Virus record (IMG/VR): IMGVR_UViG_2529293063_000017
Length of the DNA: 39,037 nucleotides
Strand: one strand, 5' to 3'
Source of the DNA: a virus
Lineage: Duplodnaviria > Heunggongvirae > Uroviricota > Caudoviricetes
The position numbers and the translations under genes were made by a program. Positions 4,142-39,037 of the stretch are shown piece by piece. The notes under the pieces were generated by a model, which saw only the letters and a list, made by a program, of their open reading frames with translations, had not been told where the DNA came from and made no database searches. Every line of letters begins with the position of its first letter. The stretch's first letter is position 1.

Positions 4142-4766
4142 GAAACCAGAACATGCACACACAAAAAAACCGCTTGCCATGCCGCAATCAGTCAGGTTAC
4201 ATTTCCGCTGCACCTCACAAAACGGGTGTCGGGTTTCGCAGCCTGCTGACTACACAAGCGCACAACCGCGCCAGCGGTTTTTTTGTGCGTACTGTATTGC
4301 CACGTTTTTTTCGCGTCAGAATTATGGCGGGGCGTACGGGGCCGACTTCGGTCGGGCCGGGTTCTTGTGTAGCCGGTACTGCGAACCTCGTACGTCTCGC
4401 CACCCACAGTTTCGCAGCTCTGGATGGTGAGTTTTCACAACTTACTACACAAGGGGCCACACCATGGCAAACCGCAAACCACACCGCGCTATCGCGGAGC
4501 GTCGTCACATCCAGACTGAAATCAACCGCAGACTTTCCCGCGCATCACGCGTCGCGCAAATCATGCACATCAATATGCTGCATGAGCGCAGCCACGCACT
4601 ATCAAACATTTATTCCGCCTCTGTTTTCAGCTATCTGGCGGATGATCTGCACTAGCTTCAACAGCTCATCCAGCAGCAAAACAAACTCCATTAATTCCTG
4701 TTCCGGGCCTTTCCTGCACCTTGCGGCGGGAGGCCTTCGCACATCTGTAACAAGAGGATTGCCGCA

Positions 4767-33316: not shown

Positions 33317-33482
33317 AGCTTCAGCCCCTTGTATCCGTTAAATGATTCGGCAACAATCATCACCCACCACGCGCGTAATCTCACCCCTGCGACGTTCTCC
33401 CGCCACGGCGACAACAAAAAGCAGTAACCCCCTCCGCACGCACATGCGACCATGCCGCACAGGGAGGGAACAGATGACCGAC

Positions 33483-34583
33483 ACCACCATGCAATTGATC
33501 AGTCAGGGCACAGACCCCGTGAAAATGCCGGATTTTGATATTCTCGCGGAGGGTAAAACGCTGTCAGGCGTGGCAGAGCGCCTGATGAGCCTGTCACTGA
33601 CCGACAACCGGGGATTTGAAGCAGACCAGCTCACCATCACGCTGGATGATGCAGATGGTCAGTTGCATCTACCGCCACGGGGCGCGCGCCTGACGGTTCT
33701 CATTGGCTGGAAAGGGGAACCGCTGACAGAAAAAGGCACTTACATTGTTGATGAAATCGCTCACGAAGGACCGCCGGACAGGCTGACTGTTTCAGCCAGA
33801 AGCGCAGATTTTCGGGATGAATTTAACGTTAAACGAGAGGTGTCCTGGCATGATGTGACCGTTGAGCGTGTGGTATCCGCCATCGCTCATCGGTATGGTC
33901 TGAAACCGCAAATCAGCGAAATGCTGATGGATATCGAAATCGACCACGCCGACCAGACCGAAGAAAGCGACATGTCCTTCCTTACGCGCATGGCGGAAAT
34001 GCTGGGCGCAATCACCACGGTAAAAAGCGGCAATCTGTTATTCATCATGCCAGGTGGTGGCGTGAACGCACAGGGCCAGCCGTTGCCCTCGTTCGCCATT
34101 ACACGCAGCAGCGGCGATCGCCATCAGTTCCGTATTGCTGATCGCGAGGCGTATACGGGGGTACGCGCCTACTGGCTTGATCTTAATTACGGGAAAAAGA
34201 AAAAAGTCAGCGTGAAACGCCGTAAACCGCCAAAACCCAAAAAGGAGAAAAGCAGCAGCCGTGAAGGTGATTATATGGAAGGCGCGGAAGGCAATGTGTT
34301 TGTGTTACGCAAGACTTATCAGAACGAGCAGGCAGCAAGACGCGCAGCGGCGGCAAAGTGGCAGCAGCTACAACGCGGAGCCGCATCATTTTCCATCACG
34401 CTGGCACGTGGACGCGCAGAACTCTACCCCGAAATGCATGGCACGGTAACAGGATTTAAAAGCGAGATTGATAATCAGGACTGGATTATTGCAAAAGTCG
34501 AGCACACCGTTGATAACAGCGGCTTTACCACGCAGCTTGAGCTTGAAGCAAAAATCCCGGAATGGATAGCGGAAACAGAATGA
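33483..34583 (+). CDS. D: Tail protein gpD-like (late gene D)
   Basis: ...SWHDVTVERVVSAIAHRYGLKP...HADQTEESDMSFLTRMAEMLGAITTVKSGNLLF...GGVNAQGQPLP...FVLRKTY...RGAASFSITLARGR... matches P2 gpD; ATG at 33483 after RBS gggaggg. Confidence 0.85.
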   Translation, partial: TTMQLISQGTDPVKMPDFDILAEGKTLSGVAERLMSLSLTDNRGFEADQLTITLDDADGQLHLPPRGARLTVLIGWKGEPLTEKGTYIVDEIAHEGPPDRLTVSARSADFRDEFNVKREVSWHDVTVERVVSAIAHRYGLKPQISEMLMDIEIDHADQTEESDMSFLTRMAEMLGAITTVKSGNLLFIMPGGGVNAQGQPLPSFAITRSSGDRHQFRIADREAYTGVRAYWLDLNYGKKKKVSVKRRKPPKPKKEKSSSREGDYMEGAEGNVFVLRKTYQNEQAARRAAAAKWQQLQRGAASFSITLARGRAELYPEMHGTVTGFKSEIDNQDWIIAKVEHTVDNSGFTTQLELEAKIPEWIAETE

Positions 34584-34731: not shown

Positions 34732-35790
34732 TTAAAAATTATTTATTATGTGTTCAGCTAAATGATCATACTCACCAGCCATCTCATTCATTAGTTCTAC
34801 CTGATTAACTGCCCATTGCCCCCGCCCACGAAGAGCATTCGTTGGCCTAACTCGAGACAAATAGCGAATAGGTATATTTTGAATAATACTATCAGGAGCC
34901 ATAACGTTGAGGTCCTCAATCTTTCCAACTGGTTCATAATCAGTAAAATCAGGAACCGCGTTGTAAGATGAAATCTGTGAAAGCTGAGGAAGCATTTTTT
35001 CCTCTATCGCTTTTCTTATTGAACGGTGATGAACTGCATCTGCACCAACCTCTTGTTTAACATCATTTTGCTTTCTCGTATCAAAACCATTGAATATCCA
35101 ACCGCCAAATTTAGGCATCCCTTTCTGAGATATAATATTATCTCGTGGGTTACCTGATAGATATCTTTCCTTGCCCTGCTCCCAATCACGTATAAATGAT
35201 GGCAACATCTCACCAATCAGCCCTACACAATATGAAGAGAATAAATCAGGTGTGCATGGAACTAAAAAATAGTCCGAGCAGTACAATGACGATCTAACAA
35301 GCGTATTGAATGAGGGAGGTAAATCTATTAGGACATAATCATAAATAACATCATTTTTCTCTGATGCTTTTTTTGTTATCAAATCTGGCAAAATAAAACG
35401 ATATAACCCTGCGCCACTTATAACATCAGTGCCGACATTTAAAATATCTGAAAATGTATTAAGCCAAAAGTCTCCAGGAACAATATGCAAAACGCCTGCA
35501 TCTGTCTTAGTCTTAGGTTCTGTTGTATAAACTTCACCTATAGTATTTTGTTGTATGTAAGGCAATGCAAATGCTTTAACCGTTTTTCCAAAAGGGAAAT
35601 CATCTGAAGGTTCCAATAACTCTGAAAATTCCTCATCACCAATACATGCAATTGAGAGATTACACTGGGGATCAAAGTCTATTAATAAAACACTTTTTCC
35701 TTTATCTGCTAGCGATACTGCAAGATTCCAAATTATAGTTGTTTTACCAACACCACCTTTGTTATTAAAAATCGATATAGTTTTTGTCAT
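34732..35790 (-). CDS. ParA/MinD-family Walker-type ATPase with about 100-aa C-terminal extension; solo accessory gene
   Basis: 352 aa; N-terminal deviant Walker A (MTKTISIFNNKGGVGKTT); AT-rich; no ParB-like partner gene nearby. Confidence 0.8.
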   Translation of the reverse strand: MTKTISIFNNKGGVGKTTIIWNLAVSLADKGKSVLLIDFDPQCNLSIACIGDEEFSELLEPSDDFPFGKTVKAFALPYIQQNTIGEVYTTEPKTKTDAGVLHIVPGDFWLNTFSDILNVGTDVISGAGLYRFILPDLITKKASEKNDVIYDYVLIDLPPSFNTLVRSSLYCSDYFLVPCTPDLFSSYCVGLIGEMLPSFIRDWEQGKERYLSGNPRDNIISQKGMPKFGGWIFNGFDTRKQNDVKQEVGADAVHHRSIRKAIEEKMLPQLSQISSYNAVPDFTDYEPVGKIEDLNVMAPDSIIQNIPIRYLSRVRPTNALRGRGQWAVNQVELMNEMAGEYDHLAEHIINNF

Positions 35791-36050: not shown

Positions 36051-36311
36051 ATGTTTCGTTGTCCGCTTTGTGGCGCATCTGCCCGTATCCGCACCAGTCG
36101 TCCTGAAAATGATTCAAACACCGTGCGGCAAAAGTATTACCAGTGTAACAATCTGGAATGCGGCGTATGCTTCTCAACACTGGAAGCTTTCCATAAATTC
36201 ACATCAAAACACGCCTCCGGCGCTCTCTCTTCAGAAGGTATCCCGTGGCATAAGCTGCCAGCTTCACACAGGGGAAACAATCAGATGAGTTTGCCTTTAC
36301 CTCAGAATTAA
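36051..36311 (+). CDS. ogr: Ogr/Delta-family zinc-finger late-gene transcription activator
   Basis: MFRCPLCGASARIRTSR...YYQCNNLECGVCFSTLEAF... resembles P2 Ogr (MFHCPLCQHAAHARTSR...YHQCQNVNCSATF...). Confidence 0.85.
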   Translation: MFRCPLCGASARIRTSRPENDSNTVRQKYYQCNNLECGVCFSTLEAFHKFTSKHASGALSSEGIPWHKLPASHRGNNQMSLPLPQN

Positions 36312-36502
36312 TGGGCAGAATTGCCGGAGCAACAAAAAAGCGATAGATTACGCGCGGGTGCCTTTCGGCTGATGGTCGGAGGGAATACCCGAAGGCCAGA
36401 TGTGGAAAGACCCCGGAAAACATTTCTGTTTAACCGAGGCCCTAACATATCTACCTTAAGCAAGTGATAGGTTAGCGCCTCTCCAACAAAGGAGCAAGCG
36501 CT

Positions 36503-36643
36503 ATGTCGCAAAAATCGCTTACGGCCATCACGTTCTGCGTGACGGTAATCCTCATCATCTGGATGCTGCACGGTTCGCTGTGTGAAATACGGATGAGCTT
36601 CTGGGGAGCGGAGTTTGCGGCGTTCTTACAGTGTAAGCAGTAA
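36503..36643 (+). CDS. hok: Hok/Gef-family type I toxin (small membrane peptide)
   Basis: 46 aa, below the ORF-track length cut-off; MSQKSLTAITFCVTVILIIWMLHGSLCEIRMSFWGAEFAAFLQCKQ has the N-terminal TM helix and the SLCEIR...E.AAF... signature of Hok/Gef peptides; RBS ggagcaagcgctATG. Confidence 0.7.
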   Translation: MSQKSLTAITFCVTVILIIWMLHGSLCEIRMSFWGAEFAAFLQCKQ

Positions 36644-36878
36644 GGAAACCGCGACGGGGGAGTAATCCCCCGTCAATCGGTTGCCAGGGTAAGGTCGATA
36701 AGGCACCCTATATCACAGACATGAACAACAAGCCCGCAGCGTAAAAACTGCGGGTTTTCTTTTTGGTATCCCCATCCATAAGCAATAGGCATAACAGATC
36801 GATGCAATAAATCCGATCGATAAAAACGATCGATTTGTTATCATATCGGCAGCAGTAACCACACAAGAGGTGCCGCAA

Positions 36879-37076
36879 ATGACGCAAAATGTACGATGCA
36901 AAAATTGCAACAAACTACTTGCCCGCGCCTCATTTCACTACATTGAAATAAAATGTCCGCGCTGCAAAACACTTAACCAGATAACGAGAGCCATTGAGCA
37001 CCCCACACACATGAGGAGTTATGACCGTGGGGATCGCAATCCAGCACCAACCAGCACATACACCGGAACACACTAA
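36879..37076 (+). CDS. com: Com-like zinc-finger protein (Mu Com family translational activator)
   Basis: MTQNVRCKNCNKLLARASFHYIEIKCPRCKTLNQITRAIEHPT... resembles Mu Com (MKSIRCKNCNKLLFKADSFDHIEIRCPRCKRHIIMLNACEHPT...); its 3' end overlaps the start of the methyltransferase gene. Confidence 0.8.
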   Translation: MTQNVRCKNCNKLLARASFHYIEIKCPRCKTLNQITRAIEHPTHMRSYDRGDRNPAPTSTYTGTH

Positions 37077-37812
37077 GGTTTATCAGACTGACAATGCCAC
37101 GCTCTGTCGTGGGAATGCGCTGGAAATATTGCCGCTGATTGAGCCAGAAAGTATTGATGCCTTAATCACTGACCCGCCTTACAGTTCGGGCGCGACACAC
37201 AAGGCCGGACGCACCAACCAGGGCAGCCACGCAAAATATCTGAACGGCGAGAACCTTCATCGCTTTGATGGGTTTGCGGGTGAAAACATGGATGCCCGTT
37301 CGTGGGCTTACTGGACACAATTATGGATGGCACAGGCACACCGCGCAGTCAGGCCGGGCGGTTATGCCCTGGTATTTACTGACTGGCGACAACTGCCAGC
37401 TTTAACCGATGCGTTTCAGGCCAGCGGTTTTACATGGCGTGGAATCATTGCGTGGAACAAAGGAAGGGGGTCACGAACACCCCATACGGGGTATTTCCGG
37501 CATCAGTGCGAATACATCGTCTGGGGCAGTAAAGGCCATTTAGGTAAATCGCCTTCGGGACCGTTCGACGGCTGCATGACGTTCCCGGTTATCCCATCAA
37601 AGAAAATGCACCCGACCGGAAAACCAGAAGAACTTATGGCAGAACTGGTCAGGACTGCGAATAGTGGTGGAACAGTCCTTGATCCTTTTATGGGATCGGG
37701 AACAACGGGTGTTGCAGCACTGAAAGCAGGACGCAAATTTATTGGTATAGAAACCAGTGATCATTATTTTGATGTAGCAACACAACGGCTCAAAACGGCG
37801 ATCGAACCATAA
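37021..37812 (+). CDS. DNA methyltransferase (N6-adenine or N4-cytosine class, DPPY motif), orphan
   Basis: 263 aa; motif IV ...LITDPPYSSG... precedes motif I ...LDPFMGSGTTGVAA... (beta-class order); RBS gaggag before the ATG; no adjacent restriction endonuclease gene. Confidence 0.85.
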   Translation: MTVGIAIQHQPAHTPEHTKVYQTDNATLCRGNALEILPLIEPESIDALITDPPYSSGATHKAGRTNQGSHAKYLNGENLHRFDGFAGENMDARSWAYWTQLWMAQAHRAVRPGGYALVFTDWRQLPALTDAFQASGFTWRGIIAWNKGRGSRTPHTGYFRHQCEYIVWGSKGHLGKSPSGPFDGCMTFPVIPSKKMHPTGKPEELMAELVRTANSGGTVLDPFMGSGTTGVAALKAGRKFIGIETSDHYFDVATQRLKTAIEP

Positions 37813-38041: not shown

Positions 38042-39037
38042 ATGATACAACCTATTTCCGGCCCTCCTCCTGGGCAACCACCAGGTCAGGGAGATAACCT
38101 GCCGTCTGGCGCGGGCAATCAGCCTTTATCCAGTCAGCAACGTACTTCGCTGGAAAGCTTAATGACGAAAGTGACCTCACTGACGCAACAGCAAAGAGCA
38201 GAACTGTGGGCGGGTATCAGGCACGATATTGGTCTGTCGGGAGATTCCCCGCTGCTTTCGCGTCACTTCCCTGCCGCTGAGCATAATCTGGCGCAACGTC
38301 TGCTGGCCGCGCAAAAAAGCCATTCTGCCCGCCAGCTTTTAGCGCAATTAGGGGAGTATTTACGTCTGGGGAATAATCGTCAGGCGGTCACGGATTATAT
38401 CCGTCATAACTTTGGTCAGACGCCGCTGAATCAGCTCTCACCGGAGCAATTAAAAACCATTCTCACCCTGTTGCAGGAAGGGAAGATGGTTATTCCGCAA
38501 CCACAGCAGCGCGAGGCGACCGACCGTCCTTTATTACCGGCGGAGCACAATGCGCTAAAACAGCTGGTGACCAAACTTGCGGCGGCAACGGGGGAACCCA
38601 GCAAACAGATCTGGCAATCGATGCTGGAACTTTCCGGGGTGAAAGATGGCGAGTTAATTCCAGCGAAACTGTTTAACCATCTGGTGACCTGGTTGCAGGC
38701 GCGCCAGACGTTAAGCCAGCAAAATACGCCGACGCTGGAATCACTACAGATGGCGCTAAAACAACCTTTAGATGCCAGTGAACTGGCGGCGTTATCGGCA
38801 TATATCCAGCAAAAATATGGCCTTTCTGCGCAATCATCGCTTTCTTCTGCCCAGGCCGAGGATATTCTTAATCAGCTTTATCAACGGCGGGTTAAAGGGA
38901 TTGATCCGCGTGATATGCAACCGCTGCTTAATCCTTTTCCACCGATGATGGACACGTTGCAAAATATGGCAACGCGTCCCGCGCTGTGGATACTGTTAGT
39001 CGCGATTATCCTGATGCTGGTCTGGCTGGTTCGTTAG
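38042..39037 (+). CDS. Probable host-side gene: Pro/Gln-rich protein with internal repeats and a C-terminal TM anchor; function unknown
   Basis: 331-aa ORF beyond the candidate attR; N-terminal PPGQPPGQ segment; C-terminal ...ALWILLVAIILMLVWLVR hydrophobic tail. Confidence 0.5.
   Translation: MIQPISGPPPGQPPGQGDNLPSGAGNQPLSSQQRTSLESLMTKVTSLTQQQRAELWAGIRHDIGLSGDSPLLSRHFPAAEHNLAQRLLAAQKSHSARQLLAQLGEYLRLGNNRQAVTDYIRHNFGQTPLNQLSPEQLKTILTLLQEGKMVIPQPQQREATDRPLLPAEHNALKQLVTKLAAATGEPSKQIWQSMLELSGVKDGELIPAKLFNHLVTWLQARQTLSQQNTPTLESLQMALKQPLDASELAALSAYIQQKYGLSAQSSLSSAQAEDILNQLYQRRVKGIDPRDMQPLLNPFPPMMDTLQNMATRPALWILLVAIILMLVWLVR

Follow-up and report, generated by a model that had tools for sequence, protein, structure and literature searches.

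The 39,037-nucleotide stretch analysed here (IMG/VR record IMGVR_UViG_2529293063_000017, called the window at its full length) is a chromosomal segment of Escherichia coli with a P88-like prophage of the P2 family. At the end of this prophage lies a hok/sok-type toxin-antitoxin (TA) module of type I, which is a genuine and already catalogued kind of locus. Sequence homology and RNA modelling together make it very probable that the module belongs to the hok/sok family and has the RNA architecture of that family. The mok reading frame of the R1 plasmid system is missing, and this absence across a very common prophage clade might be the sole part of the locus that is noteworthy to a specialist. 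The module reaches from a −35 box at 36321 to a fold-back element at 36700-36708, and in the window copy a terminator follows at 36730-36765. A preliminary description of the sequence had placed the locus at 36312-36700, a range that covers most of the module and is slightly short, the fold-back element lying mostly outside it.

The toxin peptide

The hok toxin gene runs from ATG to TAA at 36503..36643 on the plus strand and encodes 46 amino acids (MSQKSLTAITFCVTVILIIWMLHGSLCEIRMSFWGAEFAAFLQCKQ), an open reading frame (ORF) that is present exactly as first described. The peptide matches Pfam PF01848 HOK_GEF with 30.1 bits against a curated cut-off of 22 (E 3.7e-7), its residues 7-44 aligning to positions 5-42 of the 42-position model, and it matches PHROG 251 with 82.8 bits. 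As ogr (36051-36311; Pfam Ogr_Delta, 52 bits) stands directly before the module, the proposed Hok/Gef-type toxin locus adjoining ogr is borne out. The nearest NCBIfam model is HokA, with 35.8 bits and thus below the equivalog cut-off of 89, and no PADLOC model matched the 46-residue peptide.

A hydrophobic stretch covers residues 6-23. Aligned with R1 Hok and HokA, the peptide keeps the Hok-invariant residues C12, T14, L26-C27-E28, E37 and A39-A40-F41, and these match the conserved positions in a survey of 1264 distinct Hok peptides, a 2026 preprint (bioRxiv 10.1101/2025.08.07.668861). The second cysteine of the window Hok, C44, is hard-coded, and no TadA editing would be needed because both cysteines are so encoded. 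The window peptide is 100% identical to WP_000078920.1, which comes from the same locus, and to the copy in phage P88 (L001). The toxin is thus already named in RefSeq and in phage records and is not the fresh find as which it had been presented.

In the same survey the 60%-identity cluster 72 has two tested members, 72_1621 and 72_1589 (Table S2 of bioRxiv 10.1101/2025.08.07.668861). The former is identical to the window peptide in 45/46 residues, V15A being the sole difference, and the latter is identical to the copy in Stx2 phages. Both were toxic on arabinose-induced overexpression, and among the 45 Hok homologues assayed the only three that were non-toxic came from other clusters (bioRxiv 10.1101/2025.08.07.668861). 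The preliminary description had regarded lack of toxicity on expression as the result that would speak against the locus. Judged by sequence identity, the window peptide with its V15 should be a Hok toxin, and the question of toxicity is effectively answered by the published 45/46-identical peptide.

For comparison, 52 distinct copies were brought into an alignment that begins at the predicted 5′ end and extends beyond the terminator; besides the window it holds 13 diverse homologues and 38 distinct loci from IMG/VR. In 52/52 of them, drawn from P2-like and lambdoid phages, from plasmids and from islands and as low as 48% in protein identity, the hok ORF is unbroken and codes for 45-46 amino acids.

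The predicted hok promoter, mRNA fold and 3′ end

Homology shared by the whole family starts at a promoter and stops a few bases past the 3′ fold-back element, and copies in differing contexts diverge beyond that 3′ limit. The putative hok promoter, of sigma-70 type and on the plus strand, consists of a −35 box TTGCCG (36321-26), a 17-nt spacer and a −10 box TAGATT (36344-49). Both hexamers are conserved among 14 diverse homologues while the spacer sequence is variable, and the geometry is that of an R1-type locus, whose −10 box sits 6 nt 5′ of a G-rich 5′ end. A simple promoter scan left this promoter unflagged because its −35 box matches in only 3/6 positions. Transcription is predicted to start near 36356 at GGGUGCC, and the predicted 5′ end of the hok mRNA carries the tac element GGGUGCCUUU (36356..36365, plus strand), which is invariant in the 52 relatives.

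It is at this 5′ end that the alignment to Rfam RF01794 begins, at model position 1. The match covers 36356-36513, from the first to the last model position (the hok AUG), with 41.3 bits and E 2.3e-7. The covariance search suggested beforehand for the hok mRNA accordingly gave an end-to-end match, with a score under the gathering score of 59. As controls, an R1-type locus scored 87 bits and hokA 70, and all members of the window's clade scored 42-51; in the R1-type locus the match was to the hok strand and reached from the 5′ end as far as the hok ATG. Despite its name, 'sok antitoxin', RF01794 models the sense strand of the hok leader, and the place of Sok is on the other strand inside the matched stretch. 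The leader RNA is left unannotated by pipelines because the clade scores under the gathering threshold, and a run on the window at that threshold confirms this.

The minimum free energy (MFE) fold of the full-length mRNA closes the molecule, 36356-36370 pairing with 36694-36708 through the core GGGUGCCUU with AAGGCACCC. As modelled, this pairing is the tac/fbi fold-back of the R1 paradigm, which would make 36694..36708 on the plus strand, with its core at 36700-08, the fold-back inhibition (fbi) element. Over the 52 sequences, 96% of the alignment cells in this helix (helix 1) are paired, and its changes are one-sided only. An alternative partner of tac is the ucb-like box AAAGACCCC at 36406..36414 (plus strand). 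The tac-ucb pairing is kept in 99.1% of cells, in columns that are invariant and so carry no covariation. In the truncated RNA the tac-ucb conformer lies 0.9-1.6 kcal/mol above the MFE. This conformer has a long hairpin as well, made by pairing of 36436-46 with 36471-81, which is otherwise the 5′ arm of the hairpin at the ribosome binding site (RBS). The complementarity of these two segments is conserved (89% paired, in nearly invariant columns). Across the family the upstream box at 36406-14 reads AAAG(G/A)CCCC; the A of the window at 36410 is rare, being found in 3/52 sequences against a G in 49/52.

In the MFE of the full-length and of both truncated RNAs, a hairpin at 36473..36503 (plus strand; helix 8, 97.2% of cells paired) sequesters the hok RBS (GGAG, 36491-94) and the A of the start codon. 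Past the hok stop stands a GC-rich stem-loop, GACGGGGGA-GTAA-TCCCCCGTC (36653..36674, plus strand; helix 14, 9 pairs), in which 100% of cells are paired and 4 pairs are changed on both sides, far above chance. By analogy with the R1-type locus, which has a hairpin at the same position, it is likely the stop for 3′ exonucleolytic trimming. The preliminary description had expected a 3′ fold-back element and had pointed to the GC hairpin after the stop. Both exist, but the hairpin is not the fold-back, for which AAGGCACCC at 36700-36708 was found instead. Between the two, 36676..36692 (plus strand) is the 3′ strand of a long-range helix in the full-length MFE, its partner being 36452-36468, where the Sok 5′ tail would bind. 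Of the 14 pairs in this helix 7, 6 show compensatory changes, and one pair occurs as CG in 24, UA in 12 and UG in 10 sequences.

When the whole structure, which was derived from one of the aligned sequences (the window), was scored over the alignment, 94.6% of cells were paired, compared with 38-44% when the 3′ partners were slid by 1-3 columns. Pairs changed on both sides numbered 24 observed and 13-18 slid, the corresponding cells 94 and 23-43, and the observed covariation score was reached by 0/500 shuffles. Beyond the fold-back element a terminator scan found an intrinsic terminator at 36730..36765 on the plus strand, a 10-bp stem followed by a T run; it is common to many copies, and copies in other genomic contexts differ in sequence there.

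The predicted Sok antisense RNA

An antisense Sok RNA had been expected somewhere in 36312-36502, and this expectation gains computational support from a conserved promoter and a covarying stem-loop at 36462-36404 on the minus strand. The predicted Sok promoter (minus strand) has a −35 box TTGCTC at 36497-92, a 17-nt spacer and a −10 box TAACCT at 36474-69. Its −10 box is invariant in 36/37 distinct leaders, the exception TAATCT being nearer to consensus, and the TTG of the −35 box is invariant, with variants that include TTGACT. The simple promoter scan did not flag it. Its position corresponds to that of the R1 sok promoter, which overlaps the hok RBS.

The predicted Sok RNA is about 59 nt long (36404..36462, minus strand, with inferred ends) and would consist of a 5′ tail (36462-36444), a stem-loop (36443-36407) and a short U-rich end. 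Its gene is convergent with hok and the RNA fully complementary to the leader at 36404-36462. Each Sok variant folds to a single-stranded tail of about 19 nt and a hairpin, whose energy ranges from −19 to −28 kcal/mol and whose upper stem is kept by different sequences (AAACA/UGUUU, GGUUAAC/GUUGACU, UUGAAC/GUUUAA). RNAalifold on a MAFFT alignment of the variants caught the invariant lower stem only, and the compensation in the upper stem was shown by folding the variants singly. Two conserved G.U pairs in the Sok stem would be A.C mismatches on the plus strand, and therefore the minus-strand RNA is indicated as the selected fold. Taken together, folding and comparison leave the predicted Sok RNA computationally well supported. 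The rare A at 36410 also turns a C into a U at the base of the Sok hairpin.

Within the module, variation is greatest in 36444-62, the segment complementary to the Sok tail, where the majority fraction is 0.81 compared with 0.94-0.97 in the flanks. The full-length fold engages this segment in the covarying long-range helix. Such a variable tail with a covarying partner fits a recognition sequence that would be diversifying against cross-talk among co-resident copies.

Absence of mok and the translation of hok

The module shares much with hok/mok/sok (parB) of plasmid R1: a small Hok-family membrane toxin, 33% identical and with the same invariant residues; a leader matched over the whole length of the Rfam model for loci of this kind; the 5′/3′ fold-back, the GC hairpin after the stop and the sequestered hok RBS; and a sok promoter overlapping the region of the hok RBS, with a Sok made of a 5′ tail and a stem-loop. 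The two differ in that the toxin of the window has 46 and not 52 amino acids, the leader is shorter (hok AUG at +148 versus about +169-174), the Rfam score is below the gathering threshold and the copy is carried by a prophage and not by a plasmid. Above all, the window has no mok, all frames being closed before the hok RBS.

The overlapping mok frame that the preliminary description had anticipated is therefore lacking. In the window no ORF with an ATG, GTG or TTG start comes from upstream to within 15 nt of the hok ATG, since stops at 36443, 36457, 36465, 36468 and 36473 shut all three frames between GAGG 36437-40, which is the position of the R1 mok Shine-Dalgarno sequence, and the hok RBS. 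A mok start codon at the R1 position, 58 nt upstream of hok, is absent in every member of the clade, and a leader ORF running into hok was found in only 3/52 distinct relatives (61 or 78 codons, from the equivalent of ATG 36400). The same script found a 71-codon leader ORF in the R1-type control locus L010. In that locus (pMTY1886_IncFII, 344-559) the leader ATG lies 57 nt upstream and in frame with hok, giving a 71-codon Mok-Hok fusion frame and not an out-of-frame mok.

The window leader does hold a short ORF of 19 codons on the plus strand (36400..36459), from ATG 36400 to TAA 36457-59, whose frame stays open past its stop into hok, in the phase of R1 mok. ATG 36400 as a displaced mok start was rejected as a general feature, the ORF having 1-28 codons in all three phases across the remaining relatives and being reduced to ATG-TGA or ATG-TAG in diverged copies. 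Because its length and phase vary and its ATG sits in the 5′ stem, the ORF is not a conserved coding feature. It could still act as the clade's functional replacement of mok, with hok translated by re-initiation after its termination. Termination of a ribosome at 36457-59 would then open the helix that encloses the hok start (36464-69/36504-09), and Sok would block initiation of the short ORF because the duplex begins 3 nt past its AUG. This coupling is improbable. The ATG with its preceding GAAGG is conserved in 52/52 sequences, in 39/52 the ORF stops 27-48 nt short of the hok ATG, where the RBS hairpin has its foot, and 36464-69 does pair with 36504-09 in the truncated MFE. However, the ORF is a single codon (ATG-TGA or ATG-TAG) or 8 codons long in diverged relatives and occurs in all three phases, RNA structure accounts for the conservation of its ATG, which is part of the conserved 3′ (descending) strand in the 5′ stem, and the R1 data require translation that reaches the hok RBS (PMC9841398).

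Opening of the hok RBS by 3′ truncation or by Sok binding was also considered and rejected, as ensemble folding shows no change; the near-MFE conformer is the sole basis of that idea. As the window copy has no mok, its toxin translation must be direct and inefficient, dependent on refolding (36436-46 capturing 36471-81), or largely silent.

Arguments for and against an active module

Several results weigh against a module that works as R1 does. Saturation mutagenesis of R1 found translation of mok at least up to the hok RBS to be mandatory (PMC9841398), and no frame of the window leader allows it. Whether the RNA is full-length, truncated or blocked at the Sok target, its ensemble leaves the hok RBS unpaired with a probability of about 0.2, and with the RBS about 80% paired in all three states thermodynamics alone gives no activation step. 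The RF01794 score of 41.3 is below 59, the tac/fbi and tac-ucb helices are consistent with the model and not proven by covariation, and the hok and Sok promoters are both weak consensus matches that the scan missed. The A at 36410 makes a C.A mismatch in the predicted tac-ucb helix and so weakens pairing of the 5′ end; with this A the folding energy of the isolated 5′ hairpin goes from −35.1 to −27.9 kcal/mol. Finally, according to the introduction of the Hok survey, chromosomal hokA, hokB and hokC were reported as unable to mediate post-segregational killing (bioRxiv 10.1101/2025.08.07.668861).

The locus may thus be a disarmed relic in which the ORF and the RNA folds persist while the toxin is never translated without mok, the remains being useless to the prophage or kept only for cross-protection by Sok against other hok copies of the same cell. 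This explanation is given a minor probability. A leader ORF that reaches the hok RBS is absent in the window and in 49/52 relatives and the RBS is predicted closed in every state, which together with the R1 requirement for mok (PMC9841398), the inactivity in killing assays that has been reported for chromosomal hok loci, the rare mismatch in the upstream box and the presence of up to nine related places per E. coli genome speaks for decay. On the other side, the hok ORF is intact in 52/52 distinct relatives over phages, plasmids and islands to 48% protein identity, the helices of the mRNA are maintained by compensatory changes and both promoters are conserved, and therefore the pattern is not one expected of a dead locus. 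A truly degenerate copy stands in contrast: in L135 (Escherichia albertii pEA5_1, 301-585) codon 2 is a stop, 15 bp of hok are deleted and the 5′ element and the GC hairpin are lost, and this copy shows what decay at a hok locus looks like.

It may equally be that the cluster-72 Hok clade, with its 46-residue toxin and its presence in about one third of complete E. coli genomes, is an active TA system that dispenses with mok, a tentative reading that we weight no higher. Sok would then control hok without translational coupling, for example by triggering cleavage by RNase III, or by stripping 36436-46 from 36471-81, the 5′ arm of the RBS hairpin, so that the hairpin re-closes. The relic and the mok-independent active system are weighted alike, and coupling through the short upstream ORF less. 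Phrase searches of the literature for hok loci that lack mok found nothing relevant, and the survey of Escalera-Maurer et al. explicitly left Mok, Sok and the mRNA ends unanalysed (bioRxiv 10.1101/2025.08.07.668861). Cluster 72, WP_000078920.1 and gp52 of P88 are the same protein as that of the window, and these sources describe the coding sequence only; the RNA anatomy and the missing mok of a cluster-72 type locus are worked out in the present analysis.

If the module is active, its course can be sketched after the R1 paradigm of Gerdes and co-workers. The full-length hok mRNA would be stable, untranslatable and closed to Sok. Slow 3′ trimming to the GC hairpin would remove the fold-back element, upon which the 5′ end could re-pair with the box at 36406-14 and the leader refold to a hairpin that exposes the Sok target. 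Short-lived Sok would bind there by its 5′ tail and RNase III would cut the duplex, as in R1 and in hokW-sokW. Once the supply of Sok stops, by loss of the prophage or by a shut-off of transcription, toxin would be made and the inner membrane depolarised. Prophage retention, phage exclusion and help in lysis as in Sakai prophage 5 (Sp5) are all candidates for the role of the window locus; the preliminary description had suggested stabilisation of the prophage or a part in abortive infection.

Comparison with hokW-sokW and hokA

The hokW-sokW locus of Sp5 is likewise carried by a prophage and is the one prophage hok/sok to have been studied by experiment. Its toxin and its antisense antitoxin were both demonstrated, and the system depended in part on RNase III and Hfq (Takada et al. 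2021, PMC8621323). It plays a role during prophage induction and aided lysis and phage release (PMC8621323). Its toxin HokW is a 51-residue Gef/RelF-like peptide (MKQQKAM...) and belongs to a Hok subfamily other than that of the window Hok. An identification of the window locus with hokW of Sp5, as might be drawn from the label 'MokW-like' on P88 gp52, was rejected for this reason; that label is a family label only. Also the 82.6% DNA match in Stx2 phages is a separate 46-residue hok gene and not hokW.

A role in the lytic cycle similar to that of hokW-sokW, in which loss of Sok on induction or infection lets Hok damage the membrane and so advances lysis and phage release, is rather unlikely for the window module. 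Deletion of hokW-sokW halved the release of Sp5, and mitomycin C lowered sokW and raised HokW (PMC8621323). The module adjoins tail-fibre and lom genes in lambdoid Stx2 phages and the late activator ogr in P2-like phages, and late read-through into hok is possible because the stretch from the ogr stop (36311) to the hok promoter holds no predicted terminator. Against such a role, P2-like prophages are classically not SOS-inducible, HokW is of the other, 51-residue subfamily, and no Ogr-type late promoter was seen, although no search for one was made.

Chromosomal hokA provides the best NCBIfam match and has in common with the window Hok the C-terminal E(F/L)AAFLxCK motif and both hard-coded cysteines. 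Identity between the two is 41% only, however, and the 35.8 bits are far under the equivalog cut-off of 89. In K-12 the hokA locus is split by IS150.

Prophage setting, distribution and neighbouring features

The left end of the prophage holds the integrase, followed by portal, terminase, capsid and tail genes up to gpD (33342-34583). At the right end a ParA-like gene on the minus strand (34732-35790) precedes ogr and the hok module, downstream of which a Com-like zinc-ribbon gene overlaps a DNA methyltransferase gene (36870-37812). The host gene flk begins at 38042, beyond the right end of the prophage.

A 469-bp query region found matches in 1756/5426 complete E. coli genomes at 73-99.8% identity, in at most nine places per genome, as well as in 198 phage records, many Stx2 phages among them at 82.6%, and in 35 plasmids. 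Strain Z0117EC0133 has a locus 99.8% identical, flanked by the same ogr and com genes and annotated in RefSeq as 'Hok/Gef family protein' (WP_000078920.1). Phage P88 and its relatives Chuche, P884B11 and 500465-2 carry a copy at 96-97% DNA identity labelled 'MokW-like host killing', and diverged copies (73-85% identity) are found between tail genes of lambdoid phages, in an island beside a second L31 gene and in IncI1 plasmids. An antisense RNA or a mok gene is annotated in none of these RefSeq, phage or other matching records. A scan of genome contigs with the invariant 14-mer AGGTTAGCGCCTCT gave matches that were nearly all due to chance, in unrelated phyla; the sampling of relatives across genera was drawn from plasmids and IMG/VR. 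One record, L136 (pSTEC1012_1, 1-603), has two tandem Hok/Gef genes about 470 bp apart beside serS; it is labelled as a 1.2-Mb 'plasmid' and is probably a misassigned chromosome fragment.

The ParA-like gene encodes a 352-residue ParA/AAA_31 ATPase and is inserted between gpD and ogr on the opposite strand (34732-35790); P88 and Chuche have no gene at this position. The N-terminus of the ATPase gives a weak match to a candidate defence protein (PADLOC PDC-M28B, 30 bits), and the gene could represent a further moron or a piece of defence cargo. In the early region of the prophage, both on the plus strand and both above the gathering score, Rfam isrK (4210-4284, 61.9 bits) and C4 antisense RNA (4320-4407, 83.2 bits) make up an immunity RNA pair of P1/P7 type.

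Downstream of the module, three GATCGAT repeats at 36797-36845, with Dam GATC sites at 36797, 36815 and 36828, lie within an inverted-repeat region. A promoter-like site at 36817-44 stands just 5′ of the Com-like gene (36870-37076), which overlaps the methyltransferase gene (37021-37812). This layout resembles the com/mom operon of Mu, whose promoter is controlled via clustered Dam sites. Unlike in Mu com/mom, the enzyme of the window is of the ordinary N6/N4 methyltransferase kind (Pfam 116 bits; PADLOC MTase_II 212 bits).

Implications

As an annotation the module adds little, the toxin gene having been named already and a near-identical sibling shown to be toxic. Its non-coding half, comprising Sok, the promoters and the fold-back elements, is annotated nowhere and, falling below the Rfam gathering score throughout the clade, is systematically missed by pipelines. 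The hypervariable Sok tail and its covarying long-range partner offer a ready system for the study of specificity among up to nine co-resident copies. With so common a clade lacking mok, either translation is silent at a large share of the hok loci of E. coli or the accepted mechanism of coupling does not hold generally; an active clade without mok would, if true, be a distinct regulatory variant of the textbook system. Either outcome affects how type I TA loci in prophages are counted and interpreted.

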